From the UHGV virus genome UHGV-1651392: DNA of 10,294 nucleotides. One strand, 5' to 3'. The translations under genes were made by a program, and so were the position numbers. This stretch comes from a virus. This document shows, piece by piece, positions 1,520 through 10,245 of this stretch. A model generated the notes under the pieces. The model was not told the origin of the DNA. It saw nothing but the letters and a program-made list of their open reading frames with translations, and made no database searches. Numbering within the stretch: position 1 is the stretch's first letter; each line of letters opens with the position of its first letter.

Positions 1520-3642
1520 AACGCGCACCGAATTTAAAGCACCAGCCGAAAGACAAAATGACGGAGGTGATTATCTTTGCGGGTAGTGATGCCTGGGCAC
1601 ATGCGAAAGAGTGGAGCGAATGGGCCGGAAAGCATATTGCGGCAGATGATACACATCCAGTTATTCTTGGACCGGAACAACTGGCGAGTCTGGCAGACAC
1701 GCAAATCATCGACAAAGGGCGCTATTACGTGCGCGTTTATCGTGCTGGTGAAATATCAGAGCAGCACCTTACACAGATAGCGACACTGCTTGCAGTGGCG
1801 GGTGTGAAGGAGGCGCGTTGCTACCGCAGCTTTGTTGATCAGCAGCCGGAGGACTGGACACCGCGCATGACTGGACTGAAGGATGATGCGGAACGCGGTA
1901 ACAGTCTGGTGATCAACCTTCCGGCGAAGACAAATTTCACCGGAAATTATGATGACGAATTAAAGCCTCGTGTTGAAAGTCGCGTCGATGGTGTTTTCTG
2001 GGTAACGCCCAAAGTGGACAAGCAGTCAGGCGAAATTATCCGGCCTGAGACGTGGTTATGTTCTCCGCTTGAACTACTGGGAACAGGAACAATCGGCAAA
2101 GAGCATTACCGCGTGATGCGCTGGAAAAAACCAGCAAACCATGAGGTCATTACAATGGCGGTCCCGTGCGGAGGCATTGGTGACCGTGACGGCTGGCGGT
2201 TGCTGAAAGACCACGGCCTTAACGTGACGACCAACGGCAAATACAGGGCTATCCTGGCTGACTGGATGCAGTTAAGCGGAAACCATGAGGAATGGCAGTT
2301 AAGCACAACAACGGGGTGGCATTTTGGTGCGTACATCATGCCGGATGGTTCGATCATCGGTGAATCAGAGAAACCCATCCTGTTTACCGGAAAAACTGCC
2401 GCTGTTAATGGCTATTCCGTGGCGGGAACAGCGGAGGGCTGGCGCGATACCGTGGCACGGCTGGCTGGTGGTAATCCGTCCATGATGCTGGGTGTGGCGG
2501 TATCGCTATCTGCACCATTAATCGGGCTGGTGGGTGCTGACGGCTTCGGGGTTCATCTTTTTGAGCAATCATCAGCAGGTAAAACCACCACACAGAACAT
2601 TGCCTCAAGTTTATGGGGAGAGCCGGACGCGCAACGGCTGACCTGGTACGGAACGGCGTTAGGTATCGCCAACGAGGCCGAAGCACATAATGACGGGCTG
2701 TTACCCCTGGATGAAATAGGCCAGGCCGGAAACGCACGGGAGGTGTCCACGTCAGCCTATACGCTGTTTAACGGTTCCGGGAAATTACAGGGGGCGAAGG
2801 ACGGCGGCAACAGGGAGATAAAACACTGGCGTACGGTGGCAATCAGCACCGGAGAAATGGACGTTGAAACATTCCTCAAAACGGAAGGGATAAAAATTAA
2901 AGCGGGGCAGCTTGTCCGTCTGCTTAACGTACCGATGGAAAAGGCCTCGCAGTTTCACGAATACAGCACCGGAAAGGCGCACGCAGACGCGTTAAAAAAT
3001 GCCTGGACAGAAAATCACGGGGCGGCAGGTCGTGAGTGGGTTAAATGGCTGGCAGGTCACCAGCAGGAGGCAAAGGACGCGGTAAAGGCATGTCGCGAGC
3101 GGTGGCGCAACCTGATACCGGAGAGCTACGGCGAGCAGGTTCACCGTGTGGGGGAAAGATTCGCCGTACTGGAGGCCGCGCTTGTGCTTTCCGGTCATGT
3201 TACAGGCTGGGATGTTCAGGCGTGCCGTGATGCAGTTCAGCATAACTTTAATGCCTGGGTGAAGGAATTCGGCACGGGCAACAGGGAATTTAAACAGATG
3301 GTTGAACAGGCTGAGGCGTTTTTGTCGTCGTTCGGGTTCAGTCGATACCTTCCCTATCCAAACAGCGACGAGCGTGATTTACCGATTAAAGACCTTGCCG
3401 GATACAGAAAGGGGAGCATCAGAAACGAAGATGAGGAGTTCCGTTTTTACACGTTCCCGCATGTGTTTGAGGGTGAGATAGCACAGGGATTTAATCCGTC
3501 TCACTTTGCCCGCGCGTTGAGTGCTGCCGGAATGCTGGAAGCGGGAGGCGACCGCCGTTACAAGAAAAAGGCGCTCGGCAGGATTGGCGGGAAGCAGCAT
3601 ATTTTTTACGTGCTGATGTTCCAGCCTGAAGCAGAATATTAA
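1516..3642 (+). CDS. Replication protein: P-loop NTPase of the DUF927-like primase/helicase type (708 aa)
   Basis: Long ORF with coupled start. Walker A-like motif SSAGKTTT (about 2566-2592) and Walker B-like hhhhDE motif LLPLDEIGQ (about 2698-2724). Directly followed by an iteron cluster, as expected for a Rep/initiator gene. Confidence 0.8.
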   Translation: MKRAPNLKHQPKDKMTEVIIFAGSDAWAHAKEWSEWAGKHIAADDTHPVILGPEQLASLADTQIIDKGRYYVRVYRAGEISEQHLTQIATLLAVAGVKEARCYRSFVDQQPEDWTPRMTGLKDDAERGNSLVINLPAKTNFTGNYDDELKPRVESRVDGVFWVTPKVDKQSGEIIRPETWLCSPLELLGTGTIGKEHYRVMRWKKPANHEVITMAVPCGGIGDRDGWRLLKDHGLNVTTNGKYRAILADWMQLSGNHEEWQLSTTTGWHFGAYIMPDGSIIGESEKPILFTGKTAAVNGYSVAGTAEGWRDTVARLAGGNPSMMLGVAVSLSAPLIGLVGADGFGVHLFEQSSAGKTTTQNIASSLWGEPDAQRLTWYGTALGIANEAEAHNDGLLPLDEIGQAGNAREVSTSAYTLFNGSGKLQGAKDGGNREIKHWRTVAISTGEMDVETFLKTEGIKIKAGQLVRLLNVPMEKASQFHEYSTGKAHADALKNAWTENHGAAGREWVKWLAGHQQEAKDAVKACRERWRNLIPESYGEQVHRVGERFAVLEAALVLSGHVTGWDVQACRDAVQHNFNAWVKEFGTGNREFKQMVEQAEAFLSSFGFSRYLPYPNSDERDLPIKDLAGYRKGSIRNEDEEFRFYTFPHVFEGEIAQGFNPSHFARALSAAGMLEAGGDRRYKKKALGRIGGKQHIFYVLMFQPEAEY

Positions 3643-3665
3643 CTTCCCTGTGTGAGGTAAAAAGT

Positions 3666-3790
3666 TGCGGGTTATGCGGGTTATCCTGTGTATAAGTTAA
3701 TTAAATGCATGATTAAAAAGGAAATCAATAACCCGCACGTAACCCGCAAAACGGCAGTTATAACCCGCAAATGTGCGATTGTAACCCGCA
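3666..3790. repeat. Iteron cluster, putative replication origin (or Rep/regulator binding array)
   Basis: 9-mer TAACCCGCA direct copies at 3729-3737, 3740-3748, 3761-3769 and 3782-3790 (spacings 11, 21, 21 bp). Two tandem inverted copies TGCGGGTTA at 3666-3674 and 3675-3683. They flank an AT-rich core at 3684-3728. Confidence 0.55.
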
Positions 3791-3852
3791 AAATTTCACT
3801 GTAAGAGTGTAAACAAGCGTAACTATCACGTTAAAACCGGAGAACAAACAGC

Positions 3853-4278
3853 ATGACGGCGCAAATATCAGCTTACGGGCGGCTGGTGGCTGACCCGCAG
3901 TTAAAGACCACCAGCAAGGGCACACAAATGGCGATGGCGAGTATGGCGGTCCCCCTTCCATGCAATCAGGCAGATGACGGAACGGCGACGATGTGGTTAT
4001 CCGTCCTGGCGTTTGGCAGACAGGCTGACGCACTGGCAAAACACCACAAAGGCGAACTGGTGAGCGTGGCCGGTAACATGCAGGTGAGCCGGTGGACGGG
4101 CCAGAACGGCGAAACGAGGCAGGGATGGCAGGTTATCGCAGACAGCGTAATCAGTGCGCGAACGGCGCGACCGGGCGGCAAAAAAGGCCAGCAGGGGCAG
4201 GCTACTGATGCACTGAACAGGGCAAAGCAACAGACAGGCCAGCACGATGATCCGTACGGGGACGGGATACCGTTTTAA
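3853..4278 (+). CDS. ssb: Single-stranded DNA-binding protein (141 aa)
   Basis: RBS GGAGAA at 3839-3844. OB-fold-like core with conserved aromatic positions, a Gly/Gln-rich linker and an acidic C-terminal tail ending DDPYGDGIPF (compare E. coli SSB DDDIPF). Confidence 0.85.
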   Translation: MTAQISAYGRLVADPQLKTTSKGTQMAMASMAVPLPCNQADDGTATMWLSVLAFGRQADALAKHHKGELVSVAGNMQVSRWTGQNGETRQGWQVIADSVISARTARPGGKKGQQGQATDALNRAKQQTGQHDDPYGDGIPF

Positions 4279-4314
4279 TTCACAACAGCGAACAGAGTAA
4301 TTACAGGGGAAGGC

Positions 4315-4812
4315 ATGACAAAGCTGACCATAAACAGAAAACCGAAGGGCATTTACGGCACGCCGCAGAAAACAGCACAGGCGGCGCAGCAGCAGAATAA
4401 AACCACATCGGCGCATAAAGTGATGCCAGATAACCAGAACACACAGCAGAAGCTCACAGGAGCAACACCGCGGCGGCGTATGACCAAACAGCAGCGTAAA
4501 AACCGCAGACGCGTTAACCGTCTTATTGAGCTATGGCCTGAATTATTCAGCCCGGAATCACCTAAGCCGCTTAAGGTGGGGATATTTGACGACCTGATAC
4601 AGGATATTGCCGCGAGAGGTATTTCACTCGGACAGGGAACACTACGCGCAACGCTGGCGCGTTATGTGCAGACTCCGCGCTATTACCGCGCCCTGGTAGC
4701 TGGTGGCGCGCGTTACGACCTGAAAGGCCAGCCGTGCGGCGAGGTAACACCACTACAACAGACGCACGCAGGAAAACTACTGGAGGAGATGAATGGAAAT
4801 AGAAAGAAATGA
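4315..4812 (+). CDS. ProQ/FinO-family RNA-binding protein (165 aa)
   Basis: RBS AGGGGA at about 4303-4308. Segment [27 protein letters not shown]...[35 protein letters not shown] closely parallels the ProQ N-terminal FinO domain (PLKIGIF.DL ... LR.AL..Y..S.RY ... R.DL.G.PCGE). Confidence 0.85.
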
Positions 4813-5209
4813 TCACGCACATGGTCGCCGTGCAGGTGATCACATTGTGGATGAAATTGCGAAAAAACAAAGAGTTGACATTGTTGTCAGTGTCACAGTC
4901 GAGAGCGCGAAGCGCCAAAATAAGCGTATAAATGATCATTCAGATGTACATGGTGTGATCACTCGTTTACGCCAGACTTTTGTAACTCGTGAAGAGATGA
5001 TTGAAGCTATTGACCAGCATACAGCATGTATCAGCGTCAGGGATATACCGGAGATCATTGCTAACTACTTCATGATCACCAGACGCCTTTACCGGAGAAA
5101 AGACAAGAGCACGGTTAACCGTCTCCTGATGTCTGATATTCGCGAATACCTGCAAGAAAGAGGCTATGTGAATCCACCAGAACAGCACTACGGAAAAGTC
5201 GGAGGCTAA
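4793..5209 (+). CDS. Hypothetical protein (138 aa), overlapping the 3' end of the ProQ/FinO gene
   Basis: Track ORF; ATG at 4793 preceded by GGAGGA at 4782-4787 (5-nt spacer); overlaps the upstream gene by 20 nt. No recognisable motifs. Confidence 0.6.
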
Positions 5210-5293
5210 CTAAAACCCTGTACCGAAGAGCGGCGGCGCGATGGGGTGAAGTAATGCAGTTGGGGTACTGACAAGGAACGGTATTGCATATCA

Positions 5294-5443
5294 ATGCGAC
5301 GACTGGAATGTTCCAGGAAGGCACAGAGGCCACCGAAGCAACCGGATAATTTAGAAGACCTGAAACGGTCGCTTAAACGCACTGAAAAAGAAATGGGGAT
5401 AGATGGGATCGGGAAATCAGTATGGCGTAACTACCAGAAGTAA
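5294..5443 (+). CDS. Possible small basic protein (49 aa); alternatively part of a small RNA
   Basis: Hand-translated: MRRLECSRKAQRPPKQPDNLEDLKRSLKRTEKEMGIDGIGKSVWRNYQK. Stop TAA at 5441-5443 lies 6 nt before a strong terminator. No convincing RBS (AAGGAA is 15 nt upstream). Confidence 0.25.
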   Translation: MRRLECSRKAQRPPKQPDNLEDLKRSLKRTEKEMGIDGIGKSVWRNYQK

Positions 5444-5449
5444 GCACAG

Positions 5450-5473
5450 AGCCGGAGCAATCCGGCTTTTTTT
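5450..5473 (+). terminator. Rho-independent terminator
   Basis: Perfect 7-bp stem AGCCGGA (5450-5456) / TCCGGCT (5461-5467) with GCAA loop, followed by a run of seven T ending at 5473. Confidence 0.65.
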
Positions 5474-5575
5474 GGGGCTGAAATCAATCAATCTGTTTTT
5501 GTGATAGAAATATGTTTATCTACCACTTTTTCAGATCAATAATGTGCATAGTTTAGTCAGTAAGAGGAAATTGCT

Positions 5576-5782
5576 GTGAATTGTATTAACGACCTGAACA
5601 CAGGCGATGTCAGAGGTGGTTCCGTTCATCTGGATGCACAGACCGTGATGCGCCTTAAGCAGTACAGAATCGACCATGTGAACAATCACCCTGATCAGCC
5701 ATTACCAGGCGTGGCGCAGATTGTCAGACATGCCGTAAACGCCTGGCTTAATCAGAATGGTTTTGCATCGGGGGGTGAGTAA
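5576..5782 (+). CDS. Small protein (68 aa), GTG start; possible ribbon-helix-helix-like regulator
   Basis: GTG at 5576 preceded by a strong RBS AAGAGGAAA (5562-5570). Pattern SVHLDAQTVMRLKQY ... GVAQIVRHAVNAWLNQNG is compatible with a strand-helix-helix fold (weak). Stop overlaps a short downstream reading frame. Confidence 0.5.
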   Translation: MNCINDLNTGDVRGGSVHLDAQTVMRLKQYRIDHVNNHPDQPLPGVAQIVRHAVNAWLNQNGFASGGE

Positions 5783-5878
5783 TGAATCGCTGGTACAGCA
5801 TCAAAGCGGAGGGACGCCAATGTTATTTAAATCAGGTTTTATGAATTCTGGTACACGATTCAAAACAGGGGGTTACTG

Positions 5879-8410
5879 ATGCCAGTCGTACCAACAGTAT
5901 CCGGACGCCAGGTTGAGAGCCGTGGAGTTCAGTCAGCAGGCTTGCAGACGTTTTCTCAGCCAGATATTGGTGATGCTTTTGTTCGGGCAGGGACAGAGGC
6001 AATTGATGTTCTTGGTCAGGCAAAACAGCGCGCCAATATTGCCTTGGTTCAGGAGGCATCCCTTAAACTCAGTCAGACAGGCAGTGATCTGCTGAATAAT
6101 CCTGAAACAGGATTGCTTAACTTGAAAGGGAAAAATGCTATTGGAAAAGGCCATGAGTATACACAGCAGTTTGATGCTCAGATCGAACAACTGGCTATGT
6201 CGCTGCCGGATGAACAGGCTCGTAATGCTTTCATGCAGCAGGCGCAGCAGCAGCGTATTCAGTTCGCTACGCAGGCCGGGAGGTACGAGATAGGGCAAAT
6301 AAATGCCTACGAAGAAGGCCAGTTTCAGGCGACACTGCTGAATAATGGTAAAAATGCCTCAGCATTATATGGCGACAACGCAGCATACATATTGGCTAAT
6401 ACGCAAACTTTCCAGCAAATTGAGGATTACGGTATTGCGCATGGCTGGAGCGACGAGCAAATCCAGGCCAAGAAAATCGAGTTTAAAGAAGCAACAGCAA
6501 AAGCAACTGCTCAAAATGCTATTGGAGCAAACTATCTTCAGGTAAGACAGCAAAATGGCGAGTTAAGCGATACTGCTGCTGGATCTCGCCGTGCTGTAGC
6601 AGATAGTGGCTCTTCCGATCGTACCCGCGGTATACGCAACAATAACCCCGGCAATCTTGAATACAGCAAAACTAATCCGTGGGTTGGGCAGACTGGTGAT
6701 GATGGTCGCTTTGCCAAATTCGAAACCCCTGAACACGGTATTCGCGCGCTTGGTCGCAATTTGCTGTCGTATCAGCGTCAGGGTTATGACACCATCAGCG
6801 AAATAATTAATCGCTGGGCACCGGCCAGTGATGATAATAAAACTGATGCTTATATACGGGCAGTATGTGCTCAGCTCGGTGTAACTCCTGACCAGCCGCT
6901 TGACGCATCAAATCCTGACACACTGAAATCTCTGTGCAAAGCAATTATTCATCATGAGCAAGGCAGTCAGCCGTACAGTGATCAGCAATTGGCCGCTGGC
7001 GTTAGTGCCGCACTGGGGCTTTCTCAGCTACCGACAAAAAATAAACGTTATACCGGTGTAGCCTGGTTCGATGCTTTAAGTGAATCAGATCAGGCCAGCG
7101 TGTTGCGACAGACGGATGCATTAGCCAGACAGCAGCAGGCTGAATATAGAACGATGCTCGAAAGCCGGGTTCGCGATGCAACGGCTGCGTATATGCGTGG
7201 CGTTGAATTTCCTAACCCGCCTGGTGAGGGTGAGTTCATTGCTGCTTATGGTGTCAGAGAAGGAAACCTGCGATATACCGAGTTCAGAAATTTGCAGATC
7301 GCCGGACAGTATATAGGCTCTTTCCGCAACATGCCGACAAGCAGCATTACCGCATATGTTGAGCAATTACGCCCGGATACTGGTGAGACAGGGGAGGGGT
7401 ATGCGTCTCGTGCGGAGTTATTCGACCGGGTATCGGCGGCAGCCACGAAGGTAATAACCCAGAGGCAGAATAATCCGTTTAGTGCAGCGGTGGAAATCGG
7501 AGCCTATAAGCCGATCACCAGCAACAACCCTGACGACATCACTGCCGAGGTGGCTAACCGTTTCTCGTCGCAGGAAAGCTTACGCGCGTTGGGAATTAAT
7601 GCCCCACTCCTCAACAGTGAAGAGGCGGCTGCGCTGGCACAGCAGGTGCGCGGCACTCAGAACGTTGACCAGACAATTAAACTGTTGCAGAGCATGGGGG
7701 AGAAGCTGCCTGCGCCAGCAATACGGCAGGTGGCATCTGTAATTGCTCCGAACAGTGCGGCAACAGCCTATTCTGCGCTGCTGCTGGGCACGCCGGATAA
7801 CCAGTACGACAACACCAGGCCGACGATCCCATATAGTCAGTTCATCGGGTATAAGCCGACGATGAACAAGTACGACGTTGCAAAGGTTATTCTTTCCGGC
7901 GACCAACTACTGAATCCGACGAAGGCCATGAAGAATGCGGGCATAACTCCGGTACAGTTGCCGAGCGAAGATAAGATGAAAGACGCTTTCGACGAACAGG
8001 TAGGTAATGCATTTGCCCGTAACCCGCAGTTACGCCAGATCAGTTATAGCCTTTTCAAAGCCGCTTACGCAGGAATAGCTTATCAATCTGGTGATGCCTC
8101 TACGGTAAGAACCAGTATGCCTGATACAGACATTGTAGCTGATGCCGTGAAGTATGCTACTGGCGGTATATACAATGGTTTTAATGGCGGCGACGTTGTA
8201 ATGCCTTTTGGCATGGATAAATCTACTTTCAAAGATCGCTATACCACATCTGCGAAACAAGCACTGAAAGATGCCGGACTTAACGTAAATGCAGTGTCAA
8301 ATTTCACGCCAGTTAATATCGGCAATAACCGGTATCGGCTTGTAAATGGTAGCGGACGCTGGGCAACAGATCCCAGAACCAATAAAGCTATTGTCGTGAG
8401 GGTTGAATAA
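5879..8410 (+). CDS. Large protein of unknown function (843 aa); possibly a virion/cell-envelope-associated or effector-type protein
   Basis: Long ORF with RBS AGGGGG (5866-5871). Gln/Ala-rich, probably helical N-terminal third. Central segment with conserved-looking motif RTRGIRNNNPGNLEYSKTNPWVGQTGDDGRFAKFETPEHGIRALGRNLL. Stop overlaps the next ATG (TAATG at 8408-8412). Function not assignable from sequence alone. Confidence 0.8.
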   Translation: MPVVPTVSGRQVESRGVQSAGLQTFSQPDIGDAFVRAGTEAIDVLGQAKQRANIALVQEASLKLSQTGSDLLNNPETGLLNLKGKNAIGKGHEYTQQFDAQIEQLAMSLPDEQARNAFMQQAQQQRIQFATQAGRYEIGQINAYEEGQFQATLLNNGKNASALYGDNAAYILANTQTFQQIEDYGIAHGWSDEQIQAKKIEFKEATAKATAQNAIGANYLQVRQQNGELSDTAAGSRRAVADSGSSDRTRGIRNNNPGNLEYSKTNPWVGQTGDDGRFAKFETPEHGIRALGRNLLSYQRQGYDTISEIINRWAPASDDNKTDAYIRAVCAQLGVTPDQPLDASNPDTLKSLCKAIIHHEQGSQPYSDQQLAAGVSAALGLSQLPTKNKRYTGVAWFDALSESDQASVLRQTDALARQQQAEYRTMLESRVRDATAAYMRGVEFPNPPGEGEFIAAYGVREGNLRYTEFRNLQIAGQYIGSFRNMPTSSITAYVEQLRPDTGETGEGYASRAELFDRVSAAATKVITQRQNNPFSAAVEIGAYKPITSNNPDDITAEVANRFSSQESLRALGINAPLLNSEEAAALAQQVRGTQNVDQTIKLLQSMGEKLPAPAIRQVASVIAPNSAATAYSALLLGTPDNQYDNTRPTIPYSQFIGYKPTMNKYDVAKVILSGDQLLNPTKAMKNAGITPVQLPSEDKMKDAFDEQVGNAFARNPQLRQISYSLFKAAYAGIAYQSGDASTVRTSMPDTDIVADAVKYATGGIYNGFNGGDVVMPFGMDKSTFKDRYTTSAKQALKDAGLNVNAVSNFTPVNIGNNRYRLVNGSGRWATDPRTNKAIVVRVE

Positions 8411-10245
8411 TGTCTGATGTTTTTTCTTTGGCTCCAGAAGGTCAGGCATGGATTGACGACAAAACAGTTGCCAACCCAGCAAGGCCAGAAGACTACGATC
8501 CGACTCCCTTCCAGGGTTCAGGTACTGCACTTTTGAGCGGCGTGGCGGAGGGGGCTCTCGGTCTCGCGCAGTCTGCCGTCGGATTCAGCAAGCGCCTGAT
8601 TAGCGATCCGGCATTTACCGCAGACGTGGCACCGACAGTTAATATTTTTCGGGAGATGTTCCCTGATGCTGACAAAACACTGAATGATACATACGACACG
8701 ATCGGAAAACAGTTACAGGATGCCCGCAGCTATGTGAAGCCTGATGCAGGCAGCCAGGGAATGGCGGCTGAGGTATTAAATGAGGTTGGTAAATTTGTTC
8801 CTGCAATCGGAACAACTATGTTTGGTGGTCCGCTCATCGGCGCTGCTACAGCCTTCAGTTCTACGTATGAGCAGTCCTATCAGGATTTTAAAGGGAAGGG
8901 AGTAGACGAGGCTACAGCGCGTAACCTGGCAACGCAGCAGAGCCTTTTCAATGCTGTGGGTATGGCCTTACCCGCTGCCGTCGGCACCACACTGGCAACG
9001 CGCATTGCCTCAGGTGTGGCAATCAACACCGGATTCGGTGGACTGAACCGTTACTCAGTAGGCGCAACACTGGAGGAAAAAGGCTACACGGAGATGGCAA
9101 AACAGTACCGGGTATTTGACGGTCAGGCGATGTTAGTCGATGCCGTTTTAGGCGGGGTCTTTGGTGGCGTTCATCACCTGACTACCCATAATAACCATGA
9201 TGGTACAGAGTCGAACATTTCTGCAGAAGAAATAAAATCAACTTTTGGTGAACATTATCAGCAATCTCCTGATGGTAACATTGAGTCAATGGTTCGTGAT
9301 TTATCTGATTCAGGAGTAATAGAACTTATTAATGAACCAGCAATAAAAAATAGTGATGGAGAAATACTTCTGAATAAAGGTCATGTGACAGTAGCTTCCG
9401 GAAAAGAACCAATAATAAGAATAAATATTAATGGATTAAAAGACCATGAAGAACTGTTAGAAACCCTTCATCACGAGGCGCTTCATCTTGAGCAGCGCCA
9501 TTACCCTGACTGGAAGGCCAGAAAGCTAGCTAATGCTGTACTTAAATCTGCAAACAAGCATTCTGACTATCCTGAATTTGCATATGGGATGTCACAATAT
9601 TATGAATATAAGAAAAGGGGTGAGTACCCTGAAACATATCCTGAGTGGTTGTACGCTGAAGAAGTTGCCGCACATGCAGTAAATCCATCTCTAAAGACAA
9701 GCGTTTCATCATGGGAAAAAATTATTTCAGGTTTTAAAGCCTATATATTCAGATACAGTGGTATTCAGGTTGGAACCGTTACACCTGAGCAGTTACGGTT
9801 ACTCGTAAGTATGCGTCTTCGCAATATGAAACTGGAAGCCGCAGTAGAAAAAGTTTTTGGTATCCGGGCGAGGGAAAGAATAAAACCAAGCGATATTGAT
9901 GCAGCCCACATTTTGAATGAGGGGCTTCATTACGATATTGAATCGTCACCAGTGCTTCATACCAGCAATGAGAGCATCAACAGCCATGTTGACGCCATGG
10001 ATGAAGCATACAGGCAACTTAATGATGGTCAGCCTGTAAATGTTGGGGGGATGGCGCGAGGGCTTGATGGTCCATTGCGATCAGATATATCTGATACTTA
10101 CCAAGAGCAATACCATGAAATACAAAAGGTTTTTGAAGAAAATGGTGTCAGATACGAAACATCATCAGAGCCAATTAGTGAATCGCCTGTCCCTCGTGAA
10201 CCGCCCCGGGAATCCTGGAGACTAAACTTCCTGAGAAAGAGGTAA
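8410..10245 (+). CDS. Modular protein (611 aa as read): GC-rich Gly/Ala-rich hydrophobic N-terminal trunk plus AT-rich C-terminal domain with HExxH motif; 3' end fused to and truncated by an IS element
   Basis: Coupled start with RBS GAGGG (8398-8402). N-terminal 257 aa contain repeated small-residue hydrophobic segments (for example GTTMFGGPLIGAATAF, ALPAAVGTTLATRIASGVAINTGFGG, VLGGVFGGV). Sampled 60-nt blocks fall from 57-68% GC to 28-35% GC at about 9180. HEALH motif at 9472-9486. The last 16 codons (from 10197) are IS-derived, so the native C-terminus is missing or altered. Confidence 0.75.
   Translation: MSDVFSLAPEGQAWIDDKTVANPARPEDYDPTPFQGSGTALLSGVAEGALGLAQSAVGFSKRLISDPAFTADVAPTVNIFREMFPDADKTLNDTYDTIGKQLQDARSYVKPDAGSQGMAAEVLNEVGKFVPAIGTTMFGGPLIGAATAFSSTYEQSYQDFKGKGVDEATARNLATQQSLFNAVGMALPAAVGTTLATRIASGVAINTGFGGLNRYSVGATLEEKGYTEMAKQYRVFDGQAMLVDAVLGGVFGGVHHLTTHNNHDGTESNISAEEIKSTFGEHYQQSPDGNIESMVRDLSDSGVIELINEPAIKNSDGEILLNKGHVTVASGKEPIIRININGLKDHEELLETLHHEALHLEQRHYPDWKARKLANAVLKSANKHSDYPEFAYGMSQYYEYKKRGEYPETYPEWLYAEEVAAHAVNPSLKTSVSSWEKIISGFKAYIFRYSGIQVGTVTPEQLRLLVSMRLRNMKLEAAVEKVFGIRARERIKPSDIDAAHILNEGLHYDIESSPVLHTSNESINSHVDAMDEAYRQLNDGQPVNVGGMARGLDGPLRSDISDTYQEQYHEIQKVFEENGVRYETSSEPISESPVPREPPRESWRLNFLRKR

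Follow-up and report, generated by a model that had tools for sequence, protein, structure and literature searches.

Proteins of the ProQ/FinO type are established to recognise terminator hairpins (PMC9977716, PMC9674577). Described examples are FinO of F-like plasmids, FopA of pCol1B9, ProQ and RocC. The PerC-like gene next to the gene for the single-stranded DNA-binding protein (SSB) in O-island 51 (CP-933C, Sp7) of E. coli O157:H7 encodes PchE (PMC3378721), a regulator of curli, flagella and adhesion (PMC7369912). The packaging site pac of phage P1 comprises 161 bp inside pacA, with seven TGATCA/G hexamers (HEX4 and HEX3) containing Dam sites, a site for the integration host factor (IHF) and a central cleavage site (PMC10028697). 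Relatives of all three were found side by side at positions 4315 to 5473 of the virus genome UHGV-1651392, whose analysed stretch of 10,294 nucleotides is referred to as the window.

The best explanation of this interval, taken as a whole, is very probably correct. The FinO-domain gene and its neighbours would form the distal end of the replication and regulation operon of a phage-satellite remnant of the PICI (phage-inducible chromosomal island) type, located at tRNA-Gly next to ETT2 (E. coli type III secretion system 2) in E. coli. The FinO-domain gene would once have been coupled by a 4-nt overlap to a PerC/PchE-type regulator gene, with a terminator at the end of the two. Some 400 bp of P1-like DNA, namely a pacA segment with the pac site plus the first 66 ant1 codons, would have come between the two genes in this lineage. 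At the left junction the FinO-domain protein would have lost its basic C-terminal tail, and at the right junction perC its start; a 2-nt deletion would then have left a perC pseudogene. The genes for SSB and ProQ, the patch and the perC remnant are presumably co-transcribed, because only 36 nt separate the SSB gene from the ProQ gene, the following ORFs (open reading frames) overlap or abut, and no promoter hits were obtained; the transcript would end at 5473. The features concerned are:

4315..4812, + strand: FinO/ProQ-domain gene, 165 aa (Pfam PF04352, PDB matches, homologue alignment)
4793..5209, + strand: 138-aa ORF, an in-frame chimera of P1 pacA and P1 ant1 fragments (PHROG 1711, PHROG 63, tblastn)
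4802..4961, + strand (orientation as in P1 pacA): P1 pac-site homologue (alignment to P1, per-element comparison)
4967..5173, + strand: ant1 fragment, first 66 codons, which precede the ant2 start and encode an N-terminal extension specific to Ant1 (tblastn; P1 X15639)
5218..5443, + strand: PerC/PchE-family pseudogene (frameshifted annotation in RefSeq, Pfam PerC, alignments, frame analysis)
5294..5443, + strand: 49-codon ORF, the C-terminal half of the perC pseudogene (Pfam PF06069; no Shine-Dalgarno sequence upstream)
5450..5473, + strand: intrinsic terminator for perC and, presumably, the operon (T-run after a 7-bp stem AGCCGGA/TCCGGCT with a GCAA loop)

The initial annotation had listed a weak 49-codon frame lacking a good ribosome binding site as the only ORF in front of the terminator. 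This frame is present at 5294-5443 and is not preceded by a Shine-Dalgarno sequence, but it is not anonymous: its translation matches the Pfam family PerC (PF06069) with E = 4.1e-14 and 53 bits (cut-off 22.6) at profile positions 41-88 of 90. Homology to the intact perC genes (82-90 aa) of four related elements begins at about 5218, reaches the stop at 5443 and continues through the terminator. Compared to these four genes, the remnant has no start codon and is missing ~14 codons at its 5' end, and a 2-nt deletion after ~5265 moves the frame from one encoding LYRRAAARWGEVMQLG to one encoding TDKERYCISMRRLECSRK...WRNYQK. Joining the two frames yielded 75 residues that scored 91.1 bits against Pfam PerC and covered profile positions 15-88 of 90; positions 1-14 are absent. 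The RefSeq annotation was read for four close island copies, and each has the same frameshifted PerC-family pseudogene. The perC pseudogene with its terminator is thus largely ordinary and already contained in public annotation. An ATG at 5166, in the 3' end of the 138-aa ORF, aligns with the perC ATG (codons 1-14) and was considered as the ancestral perC start; the similarity is too weak to decide.

Pairwise differences among intact members of the perC family are distributed as 65/54/135 and 170/201/407 over the first, second and third codon positions. This excess at the third position in the intact homologues means that the family is protein-coding. At the DNA level, the remnant is ~78% identical to the perC gene of a cf-PICI-like (capsid-forming PICI) locus of E. 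coli O157:H7 (L003; L plus a number denotes a locus compared here) and 83% identical to the 90-aa perC gene of strain SCU-111 (L010). In L003, perC follows the SSB gene and precedes the genes for capsid, protease and portal. The remnant resembles PchE of O-island 51 in its position after the SSB/replication module and in possessing the same terminator hairpin. In contrast to pchE, the gene in the window is dead, having lost its start codon and ~14 codons and having suffered the frameshifting deletion of 2 nt.

The perfect 7-bp stem with a T-run that had been reported at 5450-5473 is indeed there and is the terminator of perC. The hairpin AGCCGGA-GCAA-TCCGGCT is followed by six further T; in its 45-nt context the predicted folding energy is -16.3 kcal/mol (z = -2.4). 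With at most one substitution in the loop, the same hairpin is located 3' of all four intact pchE-type perC genes examined (L003, L004, L005, L010). Three perC genes linked to ProQ are followed by similar hairpins of the GCCGG type, and some others (L013, L023) have no strong terminator adjacent to them. Among four copies of the island the terminator is invariant, and the next 127 nt vary at 15% of the sites. Two runs of a consensus terminator scan did not list the hairpin at 5450-5473. This miss is likely an artefact of the tool, since an extension of the stem by G-U and A-U pairs (G5449-T5468, A5448-T5469) takes two T of the tail and the 5-T rule then fails; this should be borne in mind where the scan serves as a negative control. 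The 38 nt of the perC stop region plus terminator (5436-5473) also occur with 95% identity at unannotated positions in chromosomes of Shiga toxin-producing E. coli (STEC) O111 and O103, with no perC detectable around them in the BLAST match.

A cognate small RNA (sRNA) for the FinO-domain protein had originally been proposed in the same place. In that proposal 5210-5473 is a stand-alone FinO-dependent sRNA gene which has its own promoter, ends at the terminator 5450-5473 and acts with the FinO-domain protein on genes of the element or of the host. Its appeal is understandable: the FinO-domain gene is located 400 nt upstream, the terminator is strong and U-tailed and belongs to the structural class bound by FinO domains (PMC9977716), and the 49-codon ORF has no ribosome binding site. 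However, the intrinsic terminator hairpin with a 3' U-tail, a feature expected of such an sRNA, is shared with intact pchE-type perC genes, and in intact relatives the stretch from the ProQ gene to the terminator is occupied by a perC ORF. The sRNA inference is unsupported because the stretch is homologous along its length to intact, protein-coding perC/pchE genes (82-95 aa), which are under purifying selection. A scan restricted to consensus sigma-70 sites revealed no promoter-like site on the + strand in 3600-6000 and in 5150-5650. Outside the terminator, the fold of the 266-nt stretch was no better than that of shuffled sequence (z = -0.55); Rfam gave no match in the whole window at E <= 1; and no complementarity or inverted repeat of at least 14 nt was found between 5210-5449 and the rest of the window. 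A dedicated sRNA gene is therefore highly improbable, and the "short, strongly terminated transcript" appears to be a decayed perC frame followed by the perC terminator.

The assignment of 4315-4812 to the FinO/ProQ family was right. The 165-aa product matches Pfam PF04352 with 84.8 bits (cut-off 27; E = 5.1e-24), residues 64-163 falling on profile positions 5-103 of 109. Among solved structures, the N-terminal domain of ProQ (5nb9, E = 2.1e-14) and FinO (1dvo, 3.5e-11) were matched, as were 6s10, 3mw6 and the RocC domain 7rgt, with NMB1681 also among the proteins concerned. The FinO domain (residues 64-163) is preceded by an extension rich in Lys, Arg and Gln (residues 1-60). The basic, Lys/Arg-rich C-terminal tail of the closest relatives is missing: homology to the ProQ gene of L006 ends at ~4795, the left junction of the P1 patch, and the protein of the window therefore lacks this tail. 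The protein forms a separate branch of the family and is neither ProQ nor FinO proper, because its scores are far below the cut-offs of the NCBIfam equivalogs (57.5 versus 127 bits for ProQ, NF003434; 56 versus 136 bits for FinO, NF010317). Differences among the homologous ProQ genes amount to 547/497/1158 by codon position, and with this excess at the third position the FinO-domain homologues are under purifying selection.

In an HMMER alignment to E. coli ProQ (5nb9), the protein has Arg, Tyr and Arg at the positions of R58, Y70 and R80 (LRatL, pRYy, aRyDL). These three residues, whose numbering was counted by hand on the ProQ sequence, are taken here as terminator-contacting positions, in line with the mutagenesis literature on ProQ. 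By analogy with its characterized relatives, the 165-aa protein would be expected to bind GC-rich terminator hairpins with U-tails in transcripts of the satellite or of a helper. The 3' end of its own operon would be the nearest candidate ligand, but nothing singles it out, and almost any intrinsic terminator would qualify.

With FinO, FopA, ProQ and RocC the protein shares a single FinO domain whose sequence matches the fold family. As in FinO, this domain is combined with a basic, probably disordered N-terminal extension, and like the genes of FinO and FopA its gene resides on a mobile element. Unlike in FinP/traJ and Inc/repZ, no pair of antisense RNA and mRNA and no cognate RNA could be identified near the gene. 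Unlike FinO, FopA, ProQ and RocC, it is encoded in the replication operon of a phage satellite, and the genes of its relatives appear to be translationally coupled to a PerC-type regulator gene. Terminator-like sites on the minus strand within the ProQ gene (4364, 4506, 4523) were considered as candidates for antisense RNAs; they are weak, and the count of six is not clearly above that of shuffled sequences (2.8 +/- 1.6).

Homologues of the FinO-domain gene with 64-80% identity were traced to their contigs. An intact perC gene follows ProQ in L006, L013-L015 and L021-L025, and in L006, L013, L015 and L021-L025 the perC start and the ProQ stop overlap by 4 nt. The two genes of the intact relatives are thus predicted to be translationally coupled through this start/stop overlap. 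The cassette, found in E. coli and Citrobacter, lies 3' of three types of replicase gene (DUF927, RepA/AAA_25, D5_N primase), usually with an SSB gene just upstream, and most of the relatives examined have an intrinsic terminator at the end of the pair. With a query spanning the junction, the contiguous pair was detected in at least 223 of 5,426 complete E. coli genomes (at least 4%). A pattern scan of genome contigs with the ProQ protein gave 190 pattern matches, none of which was confirmed.

Two further arrangements were observed around FinO-domain genes. A second, more distant branch (55-62% identity; L007, L008, L016, L026-L028) is found in another kind of island, which has AlpA, YagK/YfjJ and a UCP030791 gene in convergent orientation but lacks perC; the copy in L007 is frameshifted. 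In the cf-PICI-like locus L012, the ProQ gene is followed and overlapped by an 82-aa ORF (4034-4282) that is not PerC-like and has no Pfam or NCBIfam match. This ORF is located directly upstream of the capsid, protease and portal genes and has its own strong terminator.

In the literature on PerC and ProQ in satellites and on P1 satellites, only mentions at the level of annotation and no functional study of the cassette were found: for Enterobacter cloacae, ProQ/FinO-like and PerC-family genes are listed as accessory genes of two different PICIs (PMC13612085). In one passage, a paper on ProQ of enterohaemorrhagic E. coli cites work on enteropathogenic E. coli (EPEC) according to which PerC modulates how host ProQ acts on ler (PMC12426089). 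This link between host ProQ and PerC in EPEC is a lead and not evidence for the locus described here.

In a second RNA-based explanation, the 3' end of the operon mRNA, comprising part of the perC remnant and the terminator, is processed to a stable fragment and bound by the FinO-domain protein of the island or by host ProQ, in the manner of many 3'UTR-derived ProQ ligands. ProQ ligands often stem from the 3' ends of mRNAs, with the terminator serving as the binding element (PMC9977716), the terminator is invariant next to a variable flank, a link between FinO-domain proteins and perC is hinted at, and the two genes are coupled in at least the 223 genomes mentioned. The argument is purely inferential, and any intrinsic terminator shows these features. 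Moreover, the same terminator follows perC in elements without a FinO-domain gene (L003-L005, L010), and the ProQ-linked perC genes of L013 and L023 have no strong terminator adjacent to them. A 3'-end-derived RNA of this kind is quite unlikely.

The FinO-domain gene and the perC remnant are separated by a P1-derived patch of ~400 bp (4796-5215), which corresponds to the 138-aa ORF. This ORF had been described as overlapping the ProQ gene by 20 nt and as devoid of recognisable motifs. The overlap is exactly 20 nt, but the content is recognisable. Residues 5-68 match PHROG 1711 (terminase) and residues 57-127 match PHROG 63 (Ant); in tblastn, residues 7-68 correspond to P1 PacA and residues 59-127 to the N-terminus of P1 Ant1. 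The first part, ~4802-4985, is homologous to codons ~65-126 of P1 pacA, the stretch that holds the pac site. The second part is 55-72% identical in amino acid sequence to Ant1 (tblastn) and 82-84% identical in DNA sequence to KilAC antirepressor genes of P1-like plasmids; in the P1 entry X15639, ant1 is annotated to start at 540 and ant2 at 789. Compared to P1-family phage-plasmids, both fragments are ~80-84% identical. Their joined form occurs in no phage or plasmid record, and none of these records covers at least 80% of the 138-aa ORF.

The 138-aa ORF is a frame left open by chance across the P1 patch, and it is probably not a conserved protein. The differences from P1 PacA (10/17/18 by codon position) have no codon-position bias, 13 sites vary among four island copies (3/7/4 by codon position, with 11 amino acid changes), and the ORF thus behaves unlike a conserved protein. 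These numbers also weaken the idea that the ORF encodes a functional chimeric protein, e.g. an interference factor that mimics the PacA segment or the Ant1 N-terminus against a P1-like helper. Such a protein would have a good Shine-Dalgarno sequence (GGAGGAG, 4-6 nt before an ATG that overlaps the ProQ stop region), the frame is uninterrupted in each of the five island copies that were translated, and both P1 fragments are in their native reading frames. However, no homologue of the whole ORF exists outside this island, searches of Pfam and NCBIfam with the 138-aa sequence gave no match, and a functional protein is improbable.

The patch could alternatively be functional as DNA. The elements of the pac-like site at 4802-4961 are:

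4810, 4837, 4933 and 4956, + strand: intact TGATCA hexamers (four of seven, two per side)
4803, 4822 and 4945, + strand: degenerate hexamers (two mutated, TGGTCG and TGTACA; one lost at the junction)
4865-4877, + strand: homologue of the IHF site (12/13 match to P1)
4881-4898, + strand: homologue of the cleavage region (14/18; core GTTGTCAGTG identical)

The region is identical to P1 at 127 of 159 positions (80%). Compared to P1 pac, the site is homologous, has its elements in the same order and orientation, and retains the IHF site, the core of the cleavage region and, on either side, two TGATCA hexamers. It differs from P1 pac in possessing four instead of seven hexamers, in its location in a chromosomal island without pacA and pacB, and in its fusion to an ant1 fragment. 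In P1, packaging proceeds in the direction in which pacA is transcribed.

The PacA/PacB pacase of a P1-like phage-plasmid might recognise the site, and headful packaging by a P1-type helper would then take in the island, or the chromosome on its right. In addition to the conserved elements, including the Dam sites in the four hexamers, several observations are in accordance with this possibility. The differences from P1 show no codon-position bias, so that any constraint would not be on the protein; 548 matching places in the E. coli genome set belong to P1-like plasmids that have the homologous pacA segment; and Icd-like and antirepressor-type genes are also present on the island. According to the title of a reference listed in PMC10028697, P1 pac sites inserted in the chromosome raise packaging greatly. 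On the other hand, three of the seven hexamers have been lost in the island copies, whereas all P1-family pac sites compared (P1, SJ46 and two P1-like plasmids) keep seven. The identity of the pac core (84%) is no higher than that of the neighbouring ant1 fragment (82-84%), so that no sign of special conservation is seen. Moreover, an attR repeat was not detected within 25.5 kb and the island borders on an IS1 element, which suggests an immobile remnant, and the downstream cargo derives from an epsilon15-like podovirus and not from P1. A still functional packaging signal is therefore rather unlikely, and a recombination scar is more likely. If the site were used, packaging would run rightward into the cargo of the island and the adjacent chromosome; a chromosomal P1 pac-like site could then be a hot spot of P1 transduction, provided that it is still cleaved.

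The locus might reflect a conserved, translationally coupled cassette of enterobacterial phage satellites in which the RNA chaperone controls the output of the PerC-type gene, or transcripts of helper or host, through terminator binding. Here the cassette would be split by a P1 patch with a pac site, and packaging of the island or of the neighbouring chromosome by P1-like phage-plasmids may still be possible through it. This combined proposal is unlikely. If it were true, a post-transcriptional regulator borne by a satellite would be linked to a family of virulence gene activators. Since Pch proteins tune the locus of enterocyte effacement, curli and flagella in pathogenic E. coli, a satellite RNA chaperone acting with them would represent a new layer of regulation. 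The residual interest of the locus is modest and lies in the uncharacterised, widespread ProQ-PerC satellite cassette and in the patch with the P1 pac site.

Some findings weigh against the preferred explanation of a cassette disrupted by a P1 insertion. The perC remnant is nearer to the pchE-type perC genes of elements without ProQ than to the ProQ-coupled perC genes, and MAFFT gave no alignment of the remnant with the latter. The arrangement may therefore result from recombination between two satellite lineages and not from a simple insertion into one cassette. The good Shine-Dalgarno sequence and the frame that is open in five island copies make translation of the 138-aa ORF possible. Given that the promoter scan covers only sigma-70 consensus sites, an internal promoter is possible as well; the operon structure and the use of the terminator are deduced from gene spacing and homology.

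The assignment to an E. coli island follows from comparison with chromosomes. The interval 4200-5700 is 99.9% identical to loci in the chromosomes of several E. coli strains (STEC388, MS 196-1, F11 and others), and 45 of 5,426 complete E. coli genomes contain it over at least 80% of its length. In STEC388, the island (L001), with which the window shares 99.9% identity, starts with a tyrosine integrase gene adjoining a tRNA-Gly gene, followed by genes for an HTH (helix-turn-helix) regulator, Rha, antirepressor-type proteins (AntA/AntB, BRO-N), an Icd-like protein and DUF4222. It continues with the DUF927 primase/helicase, SSB, a "ProQ/FINO family protein", a hypothetical protein and a "PerC family transcriptional regulator (frameshifted)". 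The distal part consists of a 68-aa ORF and three large hypothetical genes and ends at IS1 (IS1A), which abuts truncated type III secretion genes of ETT2 and lies next to one of the EscU family. A search of the 25.5 kb of L001 for attR revealed no repeat of at least 12 nt of the tRNA-Gly 3' end. Loss of the right end (attR) may have turned the island into an immobile remnant. The gene directly upstream of the FinO-domain gene is:

3853..4278, + strand: SSB gene, the last gene of the replication module (Pfam SSB, E = 2.4e-16; RefSeq annotation)

The order SSB-ProQ is also found in L012-L014 and L021-L024. With PICIs and cf-PICIs of Enterobacteria the island shares the gene order: integrase, regulators and antirepressors, the Icd-like and DUF4222 genes, the primase/helicase, an iteron-type origin, SSB and then accessory genes. 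In contrast to these elements, it revealed neither a capsid or packaging module nor an attR, and its right side has genes for epsilon15-like ejection proteins plus IS1. The island thus gives the impression of a mosaic remnant. In related loci, the genes for capsid, protease and portal are located directly 3' of perC.

The three large "hypothetical" genes at 5879-10245, which extend to position 21027 of L001, encode podovirus ejection or internal-virion proteins; in a satellite-like island such cargo is odd. Over its full length, the 843-aa product shares 79% identity with a protein of Salmonella phage VB_ST_E15, a phage that by its name is presumably epsilon15-like. The product matches PHROG 992 (E = 5e-290) and contains a lytic transglycosylase segment of the T7-gp16 type at residues ~249-364. 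An assignment of the three genes to P1 Dar-like head proteins, which would have favoured a P1 satellite, was ruled out by this identity and by the transglycosylase.

The intergenic region 3657-3800, which separates the SSB gene from the DUF927 primase/helicase gene, contains at least six copies of (T/A)AACCCGCA in both orientations around an AT-rich stretch, and this arrangement looks like an iteron-type replication origin of the satellite. Near the left end of the window, a YlcI/YnfO-family gene (381-677, - strand) and the gene for the Icd-like cell-division inhibitor (761-964, + strand) are divergently oriented. The Icd-like gene is, besides the ant1 fragment at 4967-5173, the second P1 immI-type element in the island.

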